6,579 nt of DNA from a virus (taxonomy: Duplodnaviria; Heunggongvirae; Uroviricota; Caudoviricetes), in IMG/VR virus record IMGVR_UViG_2541047595_000016; one strand, written 5' to 3'. Numbering within the stretch: the first letter of the stretch is position 1; every line of letters begins with the position of its first letter. Positions 1-6,579 of this stretch are shown here, one piece after another. A program made the position numbers and the translations under genes. The notes beneath the pieces were generated by a model. The model worked only from the letters and a program-made list of their open reading frames with translations, was not told the origin of the DNA and did not search any database.

Positions 1-36
1 ACGGACTTCGGGGGAAAAACGAGTATTTTTAGTCAT
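1..36 (-). CDS. IS3-family transposase OrfA, N-terminal 12 codons only (5' partial in window)
   Basis: Reverse complement of 1-36 = ATG ACT AAA AAT ACT CGT TTT TCC CCC GAA GTC CGT = MTKNTRFSPEVR; AGG/GAGG-containing leader upstream (GAGAAAGAGGTAAACAGG). Too short for the ORF track. Recognised from memory as the IS629/IS1203 OrfA start. Confidence 0.7.
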   Translation of the reverse strand, partial: MTKNTRFSPEVR

Positions 37-90
37 CCTGTTTACCTCTTTCTCAGGAAGTTTAGTCTCCAGGATTCCCGGGGCGGTTCA
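1..90 (-). mobile_element. Left end of an IS3-family insertion sequence (IS629/IS1203-like), partial; continues beyond the window start
   Basis: Minus strand 90->37 reads TGAACCGCCCCGGGAATCCTGGAGACTAAACTTCCTGAGAAAGAGGTAAACAGG, a 5'-TG... terminal inverted repeat that I recognise from memory as the IS629 end. It is followed by ATG at 36-34 opening MTKNTRFSPEVR, the IS629-type OrfA N-terminus. The element ends at TGA/TCA at position 90. The other end is outside the window, so target-site duplication cannot be checked. Confidence 0.75.
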
Positions 91-958: not shown

Positions 959-3421
959 ATGACGGTCTCAACCGAAGTTGACCACAACGAATACACAGGT
1001 AACGGCGTTACGACATCATTTCCGTATACCTTCCGTATTTTCAAAAAATCCGACCTGGTTGTTCAGGTGTCTGACCTTAACGGTAACGTTACAAAACTAG
1101 TGCTGGATGCTGGTTATACGGTAACAGGGGCGGGAACTTATAGTGGCGGTGCAGTGGTTCTTCCGTCGCCGCTTGCTGCTGGCTGGCGAATCACGATAGA
1201 GCGTGTGCTTGATGTGGTGCAGGAGACTGATCTTCGCAATCAGGGAAAATTTTTCCCCGAAGTTCATGAGGATGCATTTGACTACCTGACGATGCTGATC
1301 CAGCGATGTTTTGGGTGGTTCAGACGTGCATTGATGAAACCATCTTTGCTTGCAAAATATTACGATGCAAAGCAAAACAGAATATCTAACCTTGCCGATC
1401 CATCACTTGAGCAGGACGCTGTAAATAATCGCTCAATGCGTAATTATGTCGATGCTGCAATCGCCGGAGTTATTGGTGGTTTTGGTTGGTTTATTCAGTA
1501 TGGTTCTGGAGCGGTATACAGAACGTTCCAGGATAAGATGCGTGATGGTGTCAGCATTAAGGATTTTGGAGCTCAAAATGGAATCTTAAATGATAACAAG
1601 GATGCTTTTACAAAATCATTACATTCGTTTAGCAGTGTTTTTGTTCCGGAAGGGGTATTCAATACATCTTTAGTTTCTCTTTCACGTTGTGGCTTGTACG
1701 GAACAGGTGGGGGAACGATAAAACAGTATGACAGAGATGGTAATCATCTGGTTTTTAACATGCCCGATGGTGGCATGCTTAGTACGCTAACAATTATGGG
1801 AAATAAATCAGATGATAGTGTGCAGGGACACCAGGTGTCATTTTCAGGTGGCCATGATGTATCGGTTAAAAATATCAGATTTACAAATACGCGAGGACCA
1901 GGATTTAGCTTGATCGCTTATCCGGATAATGGTATTCCGTCAGGTTACATTGTTAGAGATATAAGAGGAGAGTATTTAGGGTTCGCAAATAATAAAAAAG
2001 CAGGTTGTGTGCTTTTTGATTCATCGCAAAATACGCTAATTGATGGTGTGATAGCCAGAAATTATCCTCAGTTTGGTGCAGTGGAACTTAAAACAGCAGC
2101 AAAATATAACATTGTCAGCAATGTTATTGGTGAAGAGTGTCAGCACGTTGTTTACAATGGAACTGAGACGGAAACTGCCCCAACGAATAATATCATTAGC
2201 AGTGTAATGGCTAACAACCCAAAATACGCCGCAGTAGTTGTTGGCAAGGGGACTGGTAACCTGATTTCGGATGTGCTGGTTGATTACTCTGAATCGGACG
2301 CAAAGCAGGCGCACGGCGTCACCGTTCAGGGAAATAATAATATTGCCAGTAATATTCTAATGACTGGGTGTGATGGGAAAAATGAATCAGGAGATCTGCA
2401 GACATCTACAACCATTCGTTTCTTAGATGCTGCACGCAGTAATTATGCGTCAATATTCCCCATGTATAGTTCTTCCGGCGTGGTTACCTTCGAGGAAGGG
2501 TGTATCAGGAACTTTGTTGAAATTAAACATCCGGGTGACAGAAATAATATTCTGAGTTCTGCATCAGCGGTGACTGGTATTTCCAGTATAGACGGCACTA
2601 CAAATAGCAATGTTGTTCACGTCCCTGCGCTTGGTCAGTACGTTGGGACTATGTCAGGGCGTTTTGAATGGTGGGTTAAATATTTTAACCTTGCTAACCA
2701 GACGCTTGTTTCTGCAGATAAATTCAGAATGCTTGCTGAAGGCGATGTATCTCTGGCTGTGGGAGGCGGTATAAGTTCGCAATTGAAATTATTCAATAGT
2801 GATAATACTAAAGGCACTATGTCGCTAATAAATGGAAATATTCGAATATCTACTGGAAATTCAGAATATATACAGTTTTCTGATTCAGCCATGACACCAT
2901 CGACAACGAATACTTATTCTCTTGGGTTGGCTGGTCGTGCATGGTCGGGGGGATTTACCCAGTCAGCGTTTACGGTGCTGTCCGATGCGCGTTTCAAGAC
3001 TGCTCCAGAGGTTATTGATGAGAAAATACTGGACGCATGGGAAAGAGTGGAATGGGTTTCATACCAGTACCTTGACAGGATCGAAGTGAAAGGTAAAGAC
3101 GGAGCAAGATGGCACTTTGGTGCAGTTGCGCAGCATGTTATCAGTGTATTTCAGAATGAAGGCATAGATGTGTCACGACTGGCATTTATCTGTTATGACA
3201 AGTGGAATGAGACCCCGGCAGAATACAGGGATGTGACGGAAGAAGAGCATTCTGCAGGAGTTTACCCACTTATACAGACAAAGGTTCTGGTACGCGAAGC
3301 CGTCGAGGCTGGTGAATGTTACGGTATCCGTTATGAAGAGGCTCTGATTCTGGAATCTGCGATGATGAGACGCAGGGTTAAAAAGCTGGAAGAGCAAGTT
3401 TTGCAATTAACAGGGAATTGA
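959..3421 (+). CDS. Phage tailspike/tail-fibre receptor-binding protein (820 aa): N-terminal virion-anchor domain, central right-handed beta-helix (probable polysaccharide depolymerase), C-terminal intramolecular chaperone/peptidase S74-type self-cleaving domain
   Basis: ATG 959 with GGAGA at 948-952 and a 6-nt spacer. Residues 1-120 (YTGNGVTTSFPYTFRIF...LVLDAGYTVT...) resemble the N-terminal anchor domain of T7 gp17-like fibres. Residues about 290-640 are Asn/Gly/Ser/Thr/Val-rich with asparagine-ladder runs typical of beta-helix tailspikes (NNIISSVMANN, QGNNNIASNILMTGCDG). Residues 675-680 SDARFK fit the S-D-x-R-x-K autoproteolysis motif (Ser nucleophile, Lys at +5) of endosialidase-type C-terminal chaperone domains. 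Stop TGA 3419-3421. Confidence 0.9.
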   Translation: MTVSTEVDHNEYTGNGVTTSFPYTFRIFKKSDLVVQVSDLNGNVTKLVLDAGYTVTGAGTYSGGAVVLPSPLAAGWRITIERVLDVVQETDLRNQGKFFPEVHEDAFDYLTMLIQRCFGWFRRALMKPSLLAKYYDAKQNRISNLADPSLEQDAVNNRSMRNYVDAAIAGVIGGFGWFIQYGSGAVYRTFQDKMRDGVSIKDFGAQNGILNDNKDAFTKSLHSFSSVFVPEGVFNTSLVSLSRCGLYGTGGGTIKQYDRDGNHLVFNMPDGGMLSTLTIMGNKSDDSVQGHQVSFSGGHDVSVKNIRFTNTRGPGFSLIAYPDNGIPSGYIVRDIRGEYLGFANNKKAGCVLFDSSQNTLIDGVIARNYPQFGAVELKTAAKYNIVSNVIGEECQHVVYNGTETETAPTNNIISSVMANNPKYAAVVVGKGTGNLISDVLVDYSESDAKQAHGVTVQGNNNIASNILMTGCDGKNESGDLQTSTTIRFLDAARSNYASIFPMYSSSGVVTFEEGCIRNFVEIKHPGDRNNILSSASAVTGISSIDGTTNSNVVHVPALGQYVGTMSGRFEWWVKYFNLANQTLVSADKFRMLAEGDVSLAVGGGISSQLKLFNSDNTKGTMSLINGNIRISTGNSEYIQFSDSAMTPSTTNTYSLGLAGRAWSGGFTQSAFTVLSDARFKTAPEVIDEKILDAWERVEWVSYQYLDRIEVKGKDGARWHFGAVAQHVISVFQNEGIDVSRLAFICYDKWNETPAEYRDVTEEEHSAGVYPLIQTKVLVREAVEAGECYGIRYEEALILESAMMRRRVKKLEEQVLQLTGN

Positions 3422-3493
3422 ACCGTAAATGGTGTGTTGTTGCGCGGTATACTTTTCCTGAAGCAGGGTGTTTGCAAATAAACGGGTTTCGTT

Positions 3494-3898
3494 ATGTCAT
3501 TCCAACTAACCAATGAAACTTCAAATCAGTGGCTTAGTGTTAGTTCTCTTGCTGCGGTTATTGCAGGTGTCCCTCCGGAGGTTGCTTTGGGGGCTTTGGC
3601 TGGGGCGGTAATTTTTGTTACCTCTGCGGTAGAGTATCCTATTCGTCGTCGTGTACTCTTGTCGATGCTTAGCTTTCTCTGCGGCCTTCTTTTTTATAAA
3701 CCAGCAGCATCAATTCTTATCGGCATAGCCAGCCTGATCCCTACCATCACGCAGGACTCTTTTGAAAAAGGGATTGTTTTCTCAGCTGGCGCATTCGTGT
3801 CAGCAATTGTTGCTGTGCGTATTGGTATATGGCTCTATCACCGTTCCGATAATCCACGCGAGTTAATTCCGGGGAGAAAAGACGATGGTAACGCATGA
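3494..3898 (+). CDS. Small multi-pass membrane protein (134 aa), first gene of the lysis cassette; holin or antiholin candidate
   Basis: Three to four hydrophobic segments (about 30-46, 54-68, 70-85, 93-115) and a charged C-terminal tail ([19 protein letters not shown]). Its stop overlaps the next gene's start (ATGGTAACGCATGA). Weak Shine-Dalgarno at ATG 3494; an internal TTG at 3587 has a better GGAGG site. Function is from context only. Confidence 0.55.
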   Translation: MSFQLTNETSNQWLSVSSLAAVIAGVPPEVALGALAGAVIFVTSAVEYPIRRRVLLSMLSFLCGLLFYKPAASILIGIASLIPTITQDSFEKGIVFSAGAFVSAIVAVRIGIWLYHRSDNPRELIPGRKDDGNA

Positions 3899-4193
3899 GT
3901 TTTTTTTGCTTATCACCAATGCAGTTATTTGTACTGGCATAGCAATTCGCGTTGTCACATTCCGGCGTAACGGATCTCAACATCGAAGATTGGGAGGGTG
4001 GCTTGCTTATTTCCTTATTGTTGCTGCGGCAAGTATTCCTGTTCGTGTCGTCTATGCAATCTGGTTACGCACGCCAATGGCTGTGGATTTATCTGAGGTC
4101 ATTATCAACGCTGTCATGCTGGCTGCGGTTATTAAAACGCGCGGTAACGTCGTTCAAATTTTTAAAGTATCGAGGTCTAAACATGGAGATTAA
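3885..4193 (+). CDS. Small three-TM membrane protein (102 aa), putative holin
   Basis: ATG 3885 preceded by GGGGAGA with a 7-nt spacer. Three hydrophobic helices (about 6-24, 36-61, 67-83) and a basic C-terminus ([19 protein letters not shown]). Its 3' end overlaps the endolysin start by 11 nt, implying translational coupling. Confidence 0.6.
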
Positions 4194-4812
4194 ACAATTC
4201 CAGCGAGCTGCTGGTATCAGCGAGGCACTGGCCGCACGCTGGATCTCGCATATAACTTCTGCGATGAAAGAGTTTGGTATCAGCAAACCCGAAGATCAGG
4301 CAATGTTTATTGCTCAGGTCGGGCATGAGTCTGGTGGCTTCAACCGGTTGCAGGAAAATTTCAACTACAGCGTCACCGGACTGGCTAACTTCGTTCGGGC
4401 TGGGCGTCTCACTCAGGGGCAGGCTAATGCACTGGGGCGCCGTGCTGGTGAACCACCATTGCCACTTGAGCGCCAGCGCGCGATCGCAAATCTGGTATAC
4501 AGCAAACGCATGGGGAACAATGCCCCTGGTGATGGCTGGAATTACCGAGGGCGCGGACTTATCCAGATTACCGGTTTGAATAACTATCGTGATTGCGGAA
4601 ACGGTCTGAAGGTTGACCTGCTGGAGAGCCCTGAACTGCTGGCGCAGGACGAATATGCGGCTCGTAGCGCGGCGTGGTTCTTCGCCAGCAAAGGATGCAT
4701 GAAGTATACCGGCGATATTGCACGTGTAACTCTGATTATCAATGGTGGCCGGAACGGCATCGACGACCGGCGAGCGCGGTACATCACTGCCAGTAAGGTG
4801 CTGGCGGTATGA
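4183..4812 (+). CDS. Endolysin, glycoside hydrolase family 19 (chitinase-class-I-like lysozyme), 209 aa
   Basis: ATG 4183 with GAGG at 4172-4175. GH19 motifs VGHESGGF and [15 protein letters not shown]. The two putative catalytic Glu fall at residues 49 and 58 by my count, which matches my memory of the numbering reported for the Salmonella phage SPN1S GH19 endolysin. N-terminus is not hydrophobic, so no SAR signal. The ORF-track start at 3952 is a TTG extension through the upstream gene and is not used. Confidence 0.9.
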
Positions 4813-5291
4813 TCTGGGCATTCGTAAAAGCATACTGGAAACAGTTGCTTATCGTGGCAGTGCTTGCTGTTCTGGTCATATCAGGAGTGGTTGCCTGGAA
4901 TATACACGGCAGTCGCCAGTACGATGCCGGGTATGCGCAGGCGGAAGAAGACCGCAAAGCCGAAGAAGACAAAGTTCGTCAGTACTACGAACAGGAGAAA
5001 GTGGCCAATGAACGTGAAGCTCAGCAGAGGATCGACCAGGCGCGCAATGATGCTCTTGATGCTGCCGCTCGCGCTGGCCGGTTGCAGCAACAACTCTTTG
5101 CCATCCGTGAGCAGCTCAGGCAGTATAACGCCATTGTCGGCGCTGGGACGTCAGCCGCAGACACCGGAGTTTTGCTTGCCGACGTGCTCAGCAAATCTCT
5201 CGAGAGAAACAGACAACTGGCAGAGTATGCTGACCGGGCAGCCGAAGCCGGAAGAGTCTGCGAAAAACAGTACGACACACTGACCAGATAG
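4809..5291 (+). CDS. Rz-type i-spanin (inner-membrane spanin subunit), 160 aa
   Basis: ATG overlaps the endolysin stop (ATGA at 4809-4812). N-terminal TM helix ([18 protein letters not shown]) followed by a long charged, Ala/Gln/Glu/Arg-rich predicted coiled-coil periplasmic domain with a single C-terminal Cys. Position right after the endolysin. Confidence 0.85.
5047..5283 (+). CDS. Rz1-type o-spanin (outer-membrane lipoprotein), 78 aa, wholly embedded in the +1 frame of the i-spanin gene
   Basis: ATGATG at 5047-5052 opens [13 protein letters not shown] with lipobox LAGC and Ser at +2 (outer-membrane sorting). The mature part is Pro/Ser-rich and short with Cys residues, typical of o-spanins. 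The ORF-track ORF 4864..5283 is the same frame over-extended upstream. Confidence 0.8.
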   Translation: MMLLMLPLALAGCSNNSLPSVSSSGSITPLSALGRQPQTPEFCLPTCSANLSRETDNWQSMLTGQPKPEESAKNSTTH

Positions 5292-5372
5292 CATGGCATT
5301 TTTCATGGTACTGATTTCCGGTGACGGTATATAAAACGGTACGAGAAAAATTCATCTTTGGAAAAATGTTAT

Positions 5373-5409
5373 CACTCAATTAGTTATGGTGTCCGTAAAT
5401 AATTGAGTG
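5373..5409. repeat. Perfect 10-bp inverted repeat (CACTCAATTA ... TAATTGAGTG) with 17-bp spacer, spanning the proposed phage-host junction
   Basis: Seen in sequence: 5373-5382 cactcaatta and 5400-5409 taattgagtg are exact reverse complements. The right arm overlaps the ATTGAGTGG codons of the GuaA-like C-terminus. Confidence 0.5.
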
Positions 5410-5416
5410 GGAATGA
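5402..5416 (+). other. guaA: Orphan 3' terminus of guaA (GMP synthase) coding sequence, ...IEWE-stop; candidate attR core region
   Basis: ATT GAG TGG GAA TGA = I-E-W-E-stop. GMP synthase ends ...PPATIEWE (from memory). The frame upstream is closed by TAA at 5396-5398 and no GuaA body is present; phage lysis genes are there instead. Fits a prophage integrated at the 3' end of guaA. Confidence 0.5.
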
Positions 5417-5440
5417 TTTGACCCTGCACTATGAATGAAC

Positions 5441-5470
5441 AAAACCCTCTGTTACTACAGAGGGTTTTTT
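5441..5470. terminator. Bidirectional Rho-independent terminator between the convergent lysis operon/guaA remnant and the minus-strand host genes
   Basis: AAAA-ACCCTCTGT-tact-ACAGAGGGT-TTTTTT: stem 5443-5452 pairs with 5457-5466 (GC-rich core of 7 bp), 4-nt loop, T-tract 5465-5470 on plus strand; a weaker T-rich run follows on the minus strand. Confidence 0.75.
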
Positions 5471-5508
5471 ATCTTCAAGAATTATAGGATTGAAGTTACT
5501 AACATCGA

Positions 5509-6048
5509 TTAATTAAACCAGCTGTCCGATTTGTTCTCTTCTGCTTTGCCCACGCTTTTCATCAGATCGCGACCGCCTTCAGTCATATTTCTGTTGGCGT
5601 CAGCTTCAGATTGCACCACATCGGTTTGCGCAGCTTTGTGCTTCAGTTCCTGATCGATAAATTCGTTTTCTCGCTTAACGCGGGCTTCTTCTTTCGCCAG
5701 CGCCAGTTTTTGTTTCTGAATCTCTAAGCTGCGTAGCTCATCTTCATAACTTTGATCGCGTTTTTTGTCCGCAGAGGCTTCGGCGTCCAGTTTATCCTGA
5801 CGAGCTTTCTTATTTGCCGCTGCCGTTGCCGCTCTTTTGTTAGCGGCGGCCTGGGCATTTGCGCGACGTTGCTTCTCTTGCTGGATTTCCCTGTTGCGCT
5901 CCGCGACCCATTCGTCATGCTGCCTTTGCTCTTCATTTTTACCTTGCTGTTCCGCTTCTGCGACAGCAGAGAGTTGATCCTGCAATGATGAGGCGATAGC
6001 CGGATAGCTTAAGGAGGCTAAGATGGCGCAAAGAAAAACTTTCTTCAT
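5509..6048 (-). CDS. yfgI: Secreted (Sec signal peptide) Lys/Arg/Glu/Gln-rich coiled-coil periplasmic protein, 179 aa; host gene, tentatively YfgI
   Basis: ATG 6048-6046 with AGGAGGAG Shine-Dalgarno. Signal peptide MKKVFLCAILASLSYPAIA then an A-x-A cleavage site. The mature protein is highly charged and low-complexity (QRRANAQAAANKRAATAAANKKARQDK...). The name rests on my memory that E. coli yfgI encodes a 179-aa protein and lies beside guaA with yfgH; the sequence itself was not verified. Confidence 0.55.
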   Translation of the reverse strand: MKKVFLCAILASLSYPAIASSLQDQLSAVAEAEQQGKNEEQRQHDEWVAERNREIQQEKQRRANAQAAANKRAATAAANKKARQDKLDAEASADKKRDQSYEDELRSLEIQKQKLALAKEEARVKRENEFIDQELKHKAAQTDVVQSEADANRNMTEGGRDLMKSVGKAEENKSDSWFN

Positions 6049-6063
6049 GACTCCTCCTGATTA

Positions 6064-6579
6064 TTAGCTCTTTTCAGGACATTTGGTATTTGGCTGAATA
6101 CGCGTTTCGTTATACGTCGTGGTAATAACAACGGCTAAACCTGTCGTAAACTGGCACTCTTTACCCACCTGGGTAGAGGTATACACTTTGGTGCCTTCCT
6201 TATAGGTTAAAGAAACACCTTCCACTAAGGTTTTATCATTCACCATAGAACCCGCTGCCGCGCCTACAGCTCCGCCGCCAACTGCACCTGCCGTCGTTCC
6301 GGAATTGCTGCCAGACCCGACGTTGTGGCCGATAACACCGCCAGCGACTGCGCCAATAAGCGCGCCGAAGGCTTGTGCGTTCCGTTTATTTTGGGAGTTG
6401 TCTACGGCAACTTTTGCGGGAAGAATGGAAATAATATTAACGGTTTTAGTTTCTTGTTTGGTATTCAGTTGATCGGTTTGATAAACATCGGCAGCATGAT
6501 CGTCAGCATTTGACTGGCATCCTGCCAGAGTGAATGACGCTAACATTGCCACAGGCAGAAGACATTTTTTAAATTTCAT
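6064..6579 (-). CDS. yfgH: Glycine-zipper outer-membrane lipoprotein (SlyB/Pcp-like), 171 aa as read; host gene, tentatively YfgH
   Basis: ATG at 6579-6577, exactly at the window edge (RBS not visible; the true start could be one or more codons further upstream). Signal peptide with lipobox LAGC and Gln at +2. Gly/Ala-rich glycine-zipper segment (FGALIGAVAGGVIGHNVGSG...AGAVGGGAVGAAAGS). Lies 15 bp upstream of the 5509-6048 gene, so probably an operon. The name is from memory of the K-12 yfgH-yfgI-guaA neighbourhood; unverified. Confidence 0.5.
   Translation of the reverse strand: MKFKKCLLPVAMLASFTLAGCQSNADDHAADVYQTDQLNTKQETKTVNIISILPAKVAVDNSQNKRNAQAFGALIGAVAGGVIGHNVGSGSNSGTTAGAVGGGAVGAAAGSMVNDKTLVEGVSLTYKEGTKVYTSTQVGKECQFTTGLAVVITTTYNETRIQPNTKCPEKS

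Follow-up and report, generated by a model that had tools for sequence, protein, structure and literature searches.

Phage genes of the window

The window, by which we mean the whole stretch of DNA analysed here (6,579 nucleotides; IMG/VR virus record IMGVR_UViG_2541047595_000016), carries phage genes on its left, a non-coding junction and host genes on its right. The following phage genes are found in it.

959..3421, plus strand: tail spike/fibre protein of 820 amino acids, with a C-terminal Peptidase_S74 intramolecular chaperone domain (PF13884, residues 675-735)
3494-3898, plus strand: Phage_holin_8-like membrane protein (Pfam), collinear with phiV10 p27/p28
3885-4193, plus strand: Phage_holin_3_7 holin (Pfam), overlapping the 3494-3898 gene, collinear with phiV10 p27/p28
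4183..4812, plus strand: GH19 endolysin (Pfam Glyco_hydro_19), collinear with the phiV10 p29 endolysin
4809..5291, plus strand: Rz-like spanin (DUF2514; Pfam E = 7.6e-44), collinear with phiV10 p30/p30a, the final phage gene before attR
5008-5283, plus strand: embedded Rz1 lipoprotein frame, in the +1 frame, with the lipobox LALAGC

Holins, endolysin and Rz/Rz1, as found by Pfam and ORF analysis, make up the phage lysis cassette that an earlier note on this DNA had placed before the junction. Every phage ORF of the window is intact, and the set is collinear with the viable phages phiV10 and vB_EcoP_ZX5 (ZX5). Over the shared parts, the window shares 94-95% identity with ZX5 and HEMP4 and ~89% with phiV10, and its lysis cassette is ~82% identical to that of epsilon15. 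The tail spike of phiV10 is a different one, and the partial coverage of the window by phiV10 (only 42%) and epsilon15 (30%) is consistent with a swapped receptor-binding module. In lysogens, the product of the tail-spike gene is annotated as a tail fiber domain-containing protein.

Between the stop codon of the tail-spike gene and the first gene of the lysis cassette there are only 72 bases (3422-3493). The same slot holds an O-acetyltransferase gene (oac) in phiV10, and an O-antigen polymerase gene together with that of its inhibitor in epsilon15. Unlike phiV10, the window has no oac in this slot, and since only 72 bases are present there, the prophage appears to be without a serotype-conversion module at this position.

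On the minus strand at the left end of the window, an Rfam scan returned two matches above their gathering thresholds, the isrK Hfq-binding RNA (346-422; 67.7 bits) and the C4 antisense RNA (238-321; 66 bits), and these (238-422) are its only matches. Both RNAs lie downstream of a small minus-strand ORF (505-777), and in a related lysogen, E. coli ECSC054 (locus L002), they lie upstream of a BRO-N antirepressor gene (40165-40875, minus strand). By analogy, the arrangement looks like the P1 immI-type antisense control of an antirepressor. The closest matches from E. coli and phages begin at window position 89, 198, 214 or 219 rather than at 1. The left edge of the window (1-88, and up to 1-218 in some relatives), upstream of C4/isrK, may therefore include a mosaic boundary.

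Host flank of the junction

To the right of the junction, the window contains the following features of the E. coli chromosome.

5419..5508, plus strand: B' arm, that is the intergenic region between guaA and yfgI of the host, with 100% identity to empty-site E. coli (for example, strain B2C)
5441..5468, plus strand: intrinsic terminator native to guaA, a hairpin of 12 pairs with an A-run on one side and a T-run on the other (terminator scan)
5509..6048, minus strand: host yfgI, convergent with guaA (RefSeq annotation; Pfam DUF5384, E = 7.5e-62)
6064..6579, minus strand: host yfgH, a glycine-zipper outer membrane lipoprotein (RefSeq; Pfam glycine zipper 2TM), running to the end of the window

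A junction-spanning query of 401 bases (5250-5650) was compared with 5,426 complete E. coli genomes, 5,412 of which gave a match. In the empty-site genomes among them, which number in the thousands, the alignment starts at query position 153, corresponding to window position 5402, where the annotated feature is the guaA 3' end. From 5402 rightwards, identity to empty-site E. coli reaches 100% and continues through the end of guaA, the terminator and yfgI, and the 1.16 kb downstream of the junction is syntenic host DNA. The earlier note had stated that guaA meets yfgI in E. coli and had described a strong terminator followed by convergent host envelope genes. Both descriptions hold, the latter being the hairpin at 5441-5468, yfgI and yfgH. 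The alignment to an uninfected guaA-yfgI region that it had proposed places the start of host identity exactly at 5402 and not upstream of 5396.

The hairpin at 5441-5468 is the only terminator-like site in 5200-5600, where 0.1 would be expected by chance, and a terminator occupies the same position after guaA in the empty-site genomes. Because an A-run and a T-run flank the hairpin, it is probably bidirectional, serving both guaA and yfgI. In a lysogen, this native guaA terminator stands behind the phage lysis genes and Rz. A further rearrangement at the same intergenic spot is seen in E. coli G3/10 (NZ_CP060075.1; locus L005, 4016-5150), where an IS1A element lies just past the guaA terminator and is directly followed by yfgG, both yfgI and yfgH being absent.

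The 17-bp core

Phage and host DNA meet in a short segment that is common to both.

5402..5418, plus strand: att core, the overlap or identity region of attR, ATTGAGTGGGAATGATT

Read directly on the plus strand, 5402-5416 is ATT GAG TGG GAA TGA, encoding I-E-W-E-stop, and the core thus comprises the four final codons of guaA, the TGA stop codon and two further bases. The translation in frame with IEWE is ...LWCP*IIEWE*, a TAA at 5396-5398 shutting the frame upstream. The 17-mer occurs once in the window and in none of 200 shuffles of the window.

Five sequences were lined up base by base, namely attB from strain B2C, attL and attR from the lysogen ECSC054, attP from phiV10 and the attR of the window. 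The comparison yields the reciprocal-exchange pattern expected of site-specific recombination, with a common core of 17 bp. The core is the sole block of perfect identity shared by the attP of phiV10 and the empty-site attB, and it is exactly 17 bp long. As derived from the alignment, it is the same string as the published attP/attB core attgagtgggaatgatt, which matches the window exactly at 5402-5418. This string has been described as the attP of phiV10, epsilon15 and ZX5, with the core lying 190 bp upstream of the integrase gene, and as the attB at the guaA 3' end, with attB, attL and attR verified by PCR and Sanger sequencing (PMC9782041). In ZX5, a close relative, Int/Xis-dependent excision that regenerates attB and attP has also been shown (PMC9782041). 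Given the identity of the core to the published string, the attR at the end of guaA is a feature that is already known.

When the window is compared with the phage collection, the Uetakevirus matches (HEMP4, ZX5, phiv142-3, phiV10, epsilon15, SPN1S and others) stop at 5417-5419, with the exception of phage records that include the host flank, such as TL-2011b. Since phage identity ends at 5418/5419, the phage has its own copy of the four last codons of guaA, the stop codon and two bases. The earlier note had read the site as a right-hand junction at which an IEWE-stop, closed upstream by a TAA, is a phage-carried copy of the last guaA codons, and had named guaA as the attB of epsilon15/PhiV10-like podophages; the directly read frame, the start of host identity at 5402, the end of phage identity at 5418/5419, the Uetakevirus matches and the published site all bear it out. 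Its placement of the phage-host boundary near 5399-5402 is correct in that host identity runs from 5402, and needs amending in that bases 5399-5401 (ATA) are phage and the boundary is a block of 17 bp. As read from the aligned sequences, the phage-host boundary is an exchange region (5402-5418), with strand exchange occurring inside it, and not a point. As attP and attB are identical across the core, the crossover point within 5402-5418 is not readable from sequence, and the orphan IEWE-stop at attR may be part phage-derived and part host-derived.

P arm and putative protein-binding sites

Left of the core, three features were marked.

5292..5401, plus strand: P arm, phage non-coding DNA from the Rz stop codon to the core
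5320..5330, plus strand: putative arm-type integrase-binding site, GGTGACGGTAT, one copy in the window, with binding predicted from the motif
5370..5382, plus strand: IHF-consensus-like site, TATCACTCAATTA, a relaxed pattern match with one departure from WATCAANNNNTTR

The P arm aligns with the phiV10 attP left of the core with few mismatches. It shows no residual similarity to the B arm, which is guaA coding sequence: the two align with a score of 15, against a null maximum of 24. An Rfam scan at the junction (5290-5510) found no structured RNA.

In the attP of phiV10, the 11-mer GGTGACGGTAT occurs once in the P arm and once, as a direct copy, in the P' arm, which also has an inverted 9-mer copy of it. 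The epsilon15 RefSeq record marks GTGACGGTAT in both arms as an integrase protein_bind feature (depositor annotation). On the pattern of these repeats, it is plausible that GGTGACGGTAT at 5320-5330 is an arm-type integrase site.

A perfect 10-bp inverted repeat lies by the core, formed by 5373-5382 (CACTCAATTA) and 5400-5409 (TAATTGAGTG), as verified by a reverse-complement check, and phiV10 has an equivalent inverted repeat (I1). The IHF-like match overlaps the left arm of this repeat. Around the junction, no exact match to the strict IHF consensus WATCAANNNNTTR was found, the sole relaxed match being that at 5370-5382, and IHF sites are marked in the epsilon15 record at the equivalent stretch. 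An IHF site at 5370-5382 is thus hinted at rather weakly by the motif. In epsilon15, the part of the P arm that separates the arm-type site from the core is diverged, and it takes in the inverted repeat and the IHF-like stretch; because these are less conserved in epsilon15, we place little weight on them.

The complete element in a related lysogen and its prevalence

No record identical to the window was found in the collection, the best match being 98.7% identical. Across 99% of the window length, E. coli ECSC054 shows 98.5% identity; it is the one related lysogen that was examined in full. It carries a complete 38.4-kb prophage, in the order guaB, intact guaA, core, tyrosine integrase gene, regulatory, replication and structural genes, tail spike, lysis cassette, Rz, core, yfgI and yfgH. 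The intact guaA of 1,578 nt lies at 6135-7712, the first core at 7698-7714, the gene for the P4-type integrase at 7905-9155 and the second core at 46093-46109; there are exactly two copies of the core, and their starts are 38,395 bp apart. This layout agrees with what the earlier note had foreseen, namely intact guaA and the integrase at the far end. In phiV10 itself, the core is located between Rz/Rz1 and the P4-family integrase gene, ~190 bp upstream of int.

Of the 5426 complete E. coli genomes, 548 (~10%) cover at least 80% of the junction-spanning query, which indicates that a phage of this group is present at the guaA site in them. The tail-spike variant of the window is rarer, with 68 complete E. 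coli genomes covering at least 80% of the whole window.

Two plasmid records of 41,027 bp each (NZ_CP079771.1 and NZ_CP079768.1) encode an integrase that is 98.3% identical to phiV10 Int, and as their size fits that of a Uetakevirus genome, they probably represent circular phage genomes that were submitted as plasmids. A match to the Klebsiella phage ST11-OXA245phi3.2 (MK416010.1; 75.9% identity) reaches position 5470, past the core and the host-type terminator; either host flank is included in that record or it represents a related Klebsiella prophage at the equivalent guaA site.

Comparison with known integration systems

The closest systems are phiV10 and ZX5, whose attR has the identical 17-bp core and, apart from a few mismatches, the same P arm. 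They also share the gene order holin, GH19 endolysin, Rz/Rz1, attP and int, and the host flank of guaA terminator followed by yfgI. The attP of epsilon15 agrees in its core, in carrying the arm-type motif GTGACGGTAT in each arm and in the terminator of its P' arm. Epsilon15 differs in its host, which is Salmonella, and in the presence of a seroconversion module.

Integration of the Lambda/P4 type into the 3' ends of genes is known from P4, P22 and HP1, which use tRNA genes. As in these systems, the integrase gene adjoins attP, the phage copy of the 3' end of the target leaves the gene intact, and arm-type repeats flank a short core. Unlike in P4, P22 and HP1, the target is a protein-coding gene and not a tRNA gene, and the duplicated segment is only 17 bp long, accompanied by a separate look-alike terminator.

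The 3' end of guaA is used by another kind of element as well. The integration site reported for GIsul2, which has a tyrosine integrase, is the 8-bp sequence GAGTGGGA at the guaA 3' end (PMC9376610). This sequence corresponds to window positions 5405-5412, inside the 17-bp core. GIsul2 is a resistance island and not a phage, and none of its genes is present in the window. In a tblastn search of plasmids with the phiV10 integrase, near-identical phage-type integrases ranked first, and GIsul2 was not recognised among the matches listed.

An attR in the last codons of guaA

Based on the sequence identities on both sides of the core, we interpret the junction as the attR of an epsilon15/phiV10-like (Uetakevirus) prophage integrated in the last codons of guaA, with a probability of about 95%; no observation speaks against it. 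An attR at guaA is a well-documented and common arrangement, being the documented site of a known phage group.

In the best-supported mechanism, the P4-family tyrosine integrase of the phage recombines attP, located between Rz and int and carrying the core ATTGAGTGGGAATGATT, with attB, the same 17 bp at the end of guaA, within the 17-bp identity. Int and IHF would bind at the sites marked above and the strands would be exchanged at a position inside the core, as far as the motifs allow one to predict. Since a copy of the core arrives with the phage, guaA stays intact at attL, and the phage DNA that follows it there supplies a terminator nearly the same as that of guaA. At attR, the lysis cassette and P arm abut the orphan IEWE-stop, followed by the native guaA terminator, yfgI and yfgH. 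We infer that the prophage of the source genome is complete and inducible.

A genuine attR could also belong to a defective remnant of which only the right end survives, attL and int having been lost or rearranged. The window does hold just the right-most 5.4 kb of the element, and some records of the phage collection are partial (14-19 kb). Against this, ECSC054 carries the complete 38.4-kb prophage with both copies of the core, and the phage ORFs of the window, all intact, are collinear with those of the viable phiV10 and ZX5, so that a remnant is unlikely for the source genome. Far less probable is the junction of some other guaA-targeting element, for instance a GIsul2-type genomic island, in place of a phage. 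GIsul2 and related islands do use the same guaA 3' end (PMC9376610), but the DNA left of the core is a phiV10-type P arm and lysis cassette with 89-95% identity to Uetakevirus, and neither ORFs nor Pfam matches point to island genes in the window; since the left flank is Uetakevirus DNA, such an island is ruled out for this attR, while a tandem array with an island at attL is conceivable. Five codons are a weak signature in isolation, but the notion that the IEWE-stop is a piece of open frame that arose by chance, or a scrap of a guaA pseudogene left by deletion or duplication without site-specific recombination, is refuted by the identity of the 17-mer to attP and attB, the switch from phage to host identity exactly across it, its absence from the shuffles and the 1.16 kb of syntenic host DNA downstream.

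For annotation, reading the junction as a Uetakevirus attR fixes precisely the right end of a common E. coli prophage, one found at this site in ~10% of complete genomes. It also explains the orphan guaA codons, and at the far end of the element guaA is expected to be intact. The case further indicates that an att junction can be recognised from a five-codon signature by a reader without tools, and the finding itself raises no new biological question.

Terminator mimicry and a shared target site

The P' arm of phiV10 carries a terminator that is identical in 25 of 27 positions to the native guaA terminator (window 5443-5469). In a local alignment the two score 44, and the highest score among 1,000 shuffles was 30. 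The P' terminator starts 44 nt after the core and the native guaA terminator 24 nt after it. The P' arm of epsilon15 also has a look-alike terminator, with one further change. Because of this near-identical terminator in the P' arm, guaA in a lysogen keeps its last codons and its stop codon together with a near-identical terminator.

These observations allow a tentative, and in our view rather doubtful, proposal that the att region of the phage, beyond the 17-bp core, is a captured and since diverged copy of the 3' flank of host guaA, and that the guaA terminus is a shared hot spot. If so, integration would swap in a complete replacement 3' end of guaA, comprising codons, stop codon and terminator, and the guaA terminus would be a hot spot for competing elements, the phage and the unrelated GIsul2 island, at GAGTGGGA. 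Two kinds of element, the phage and GIsul2, compete for the same few bases at 5405-5412.
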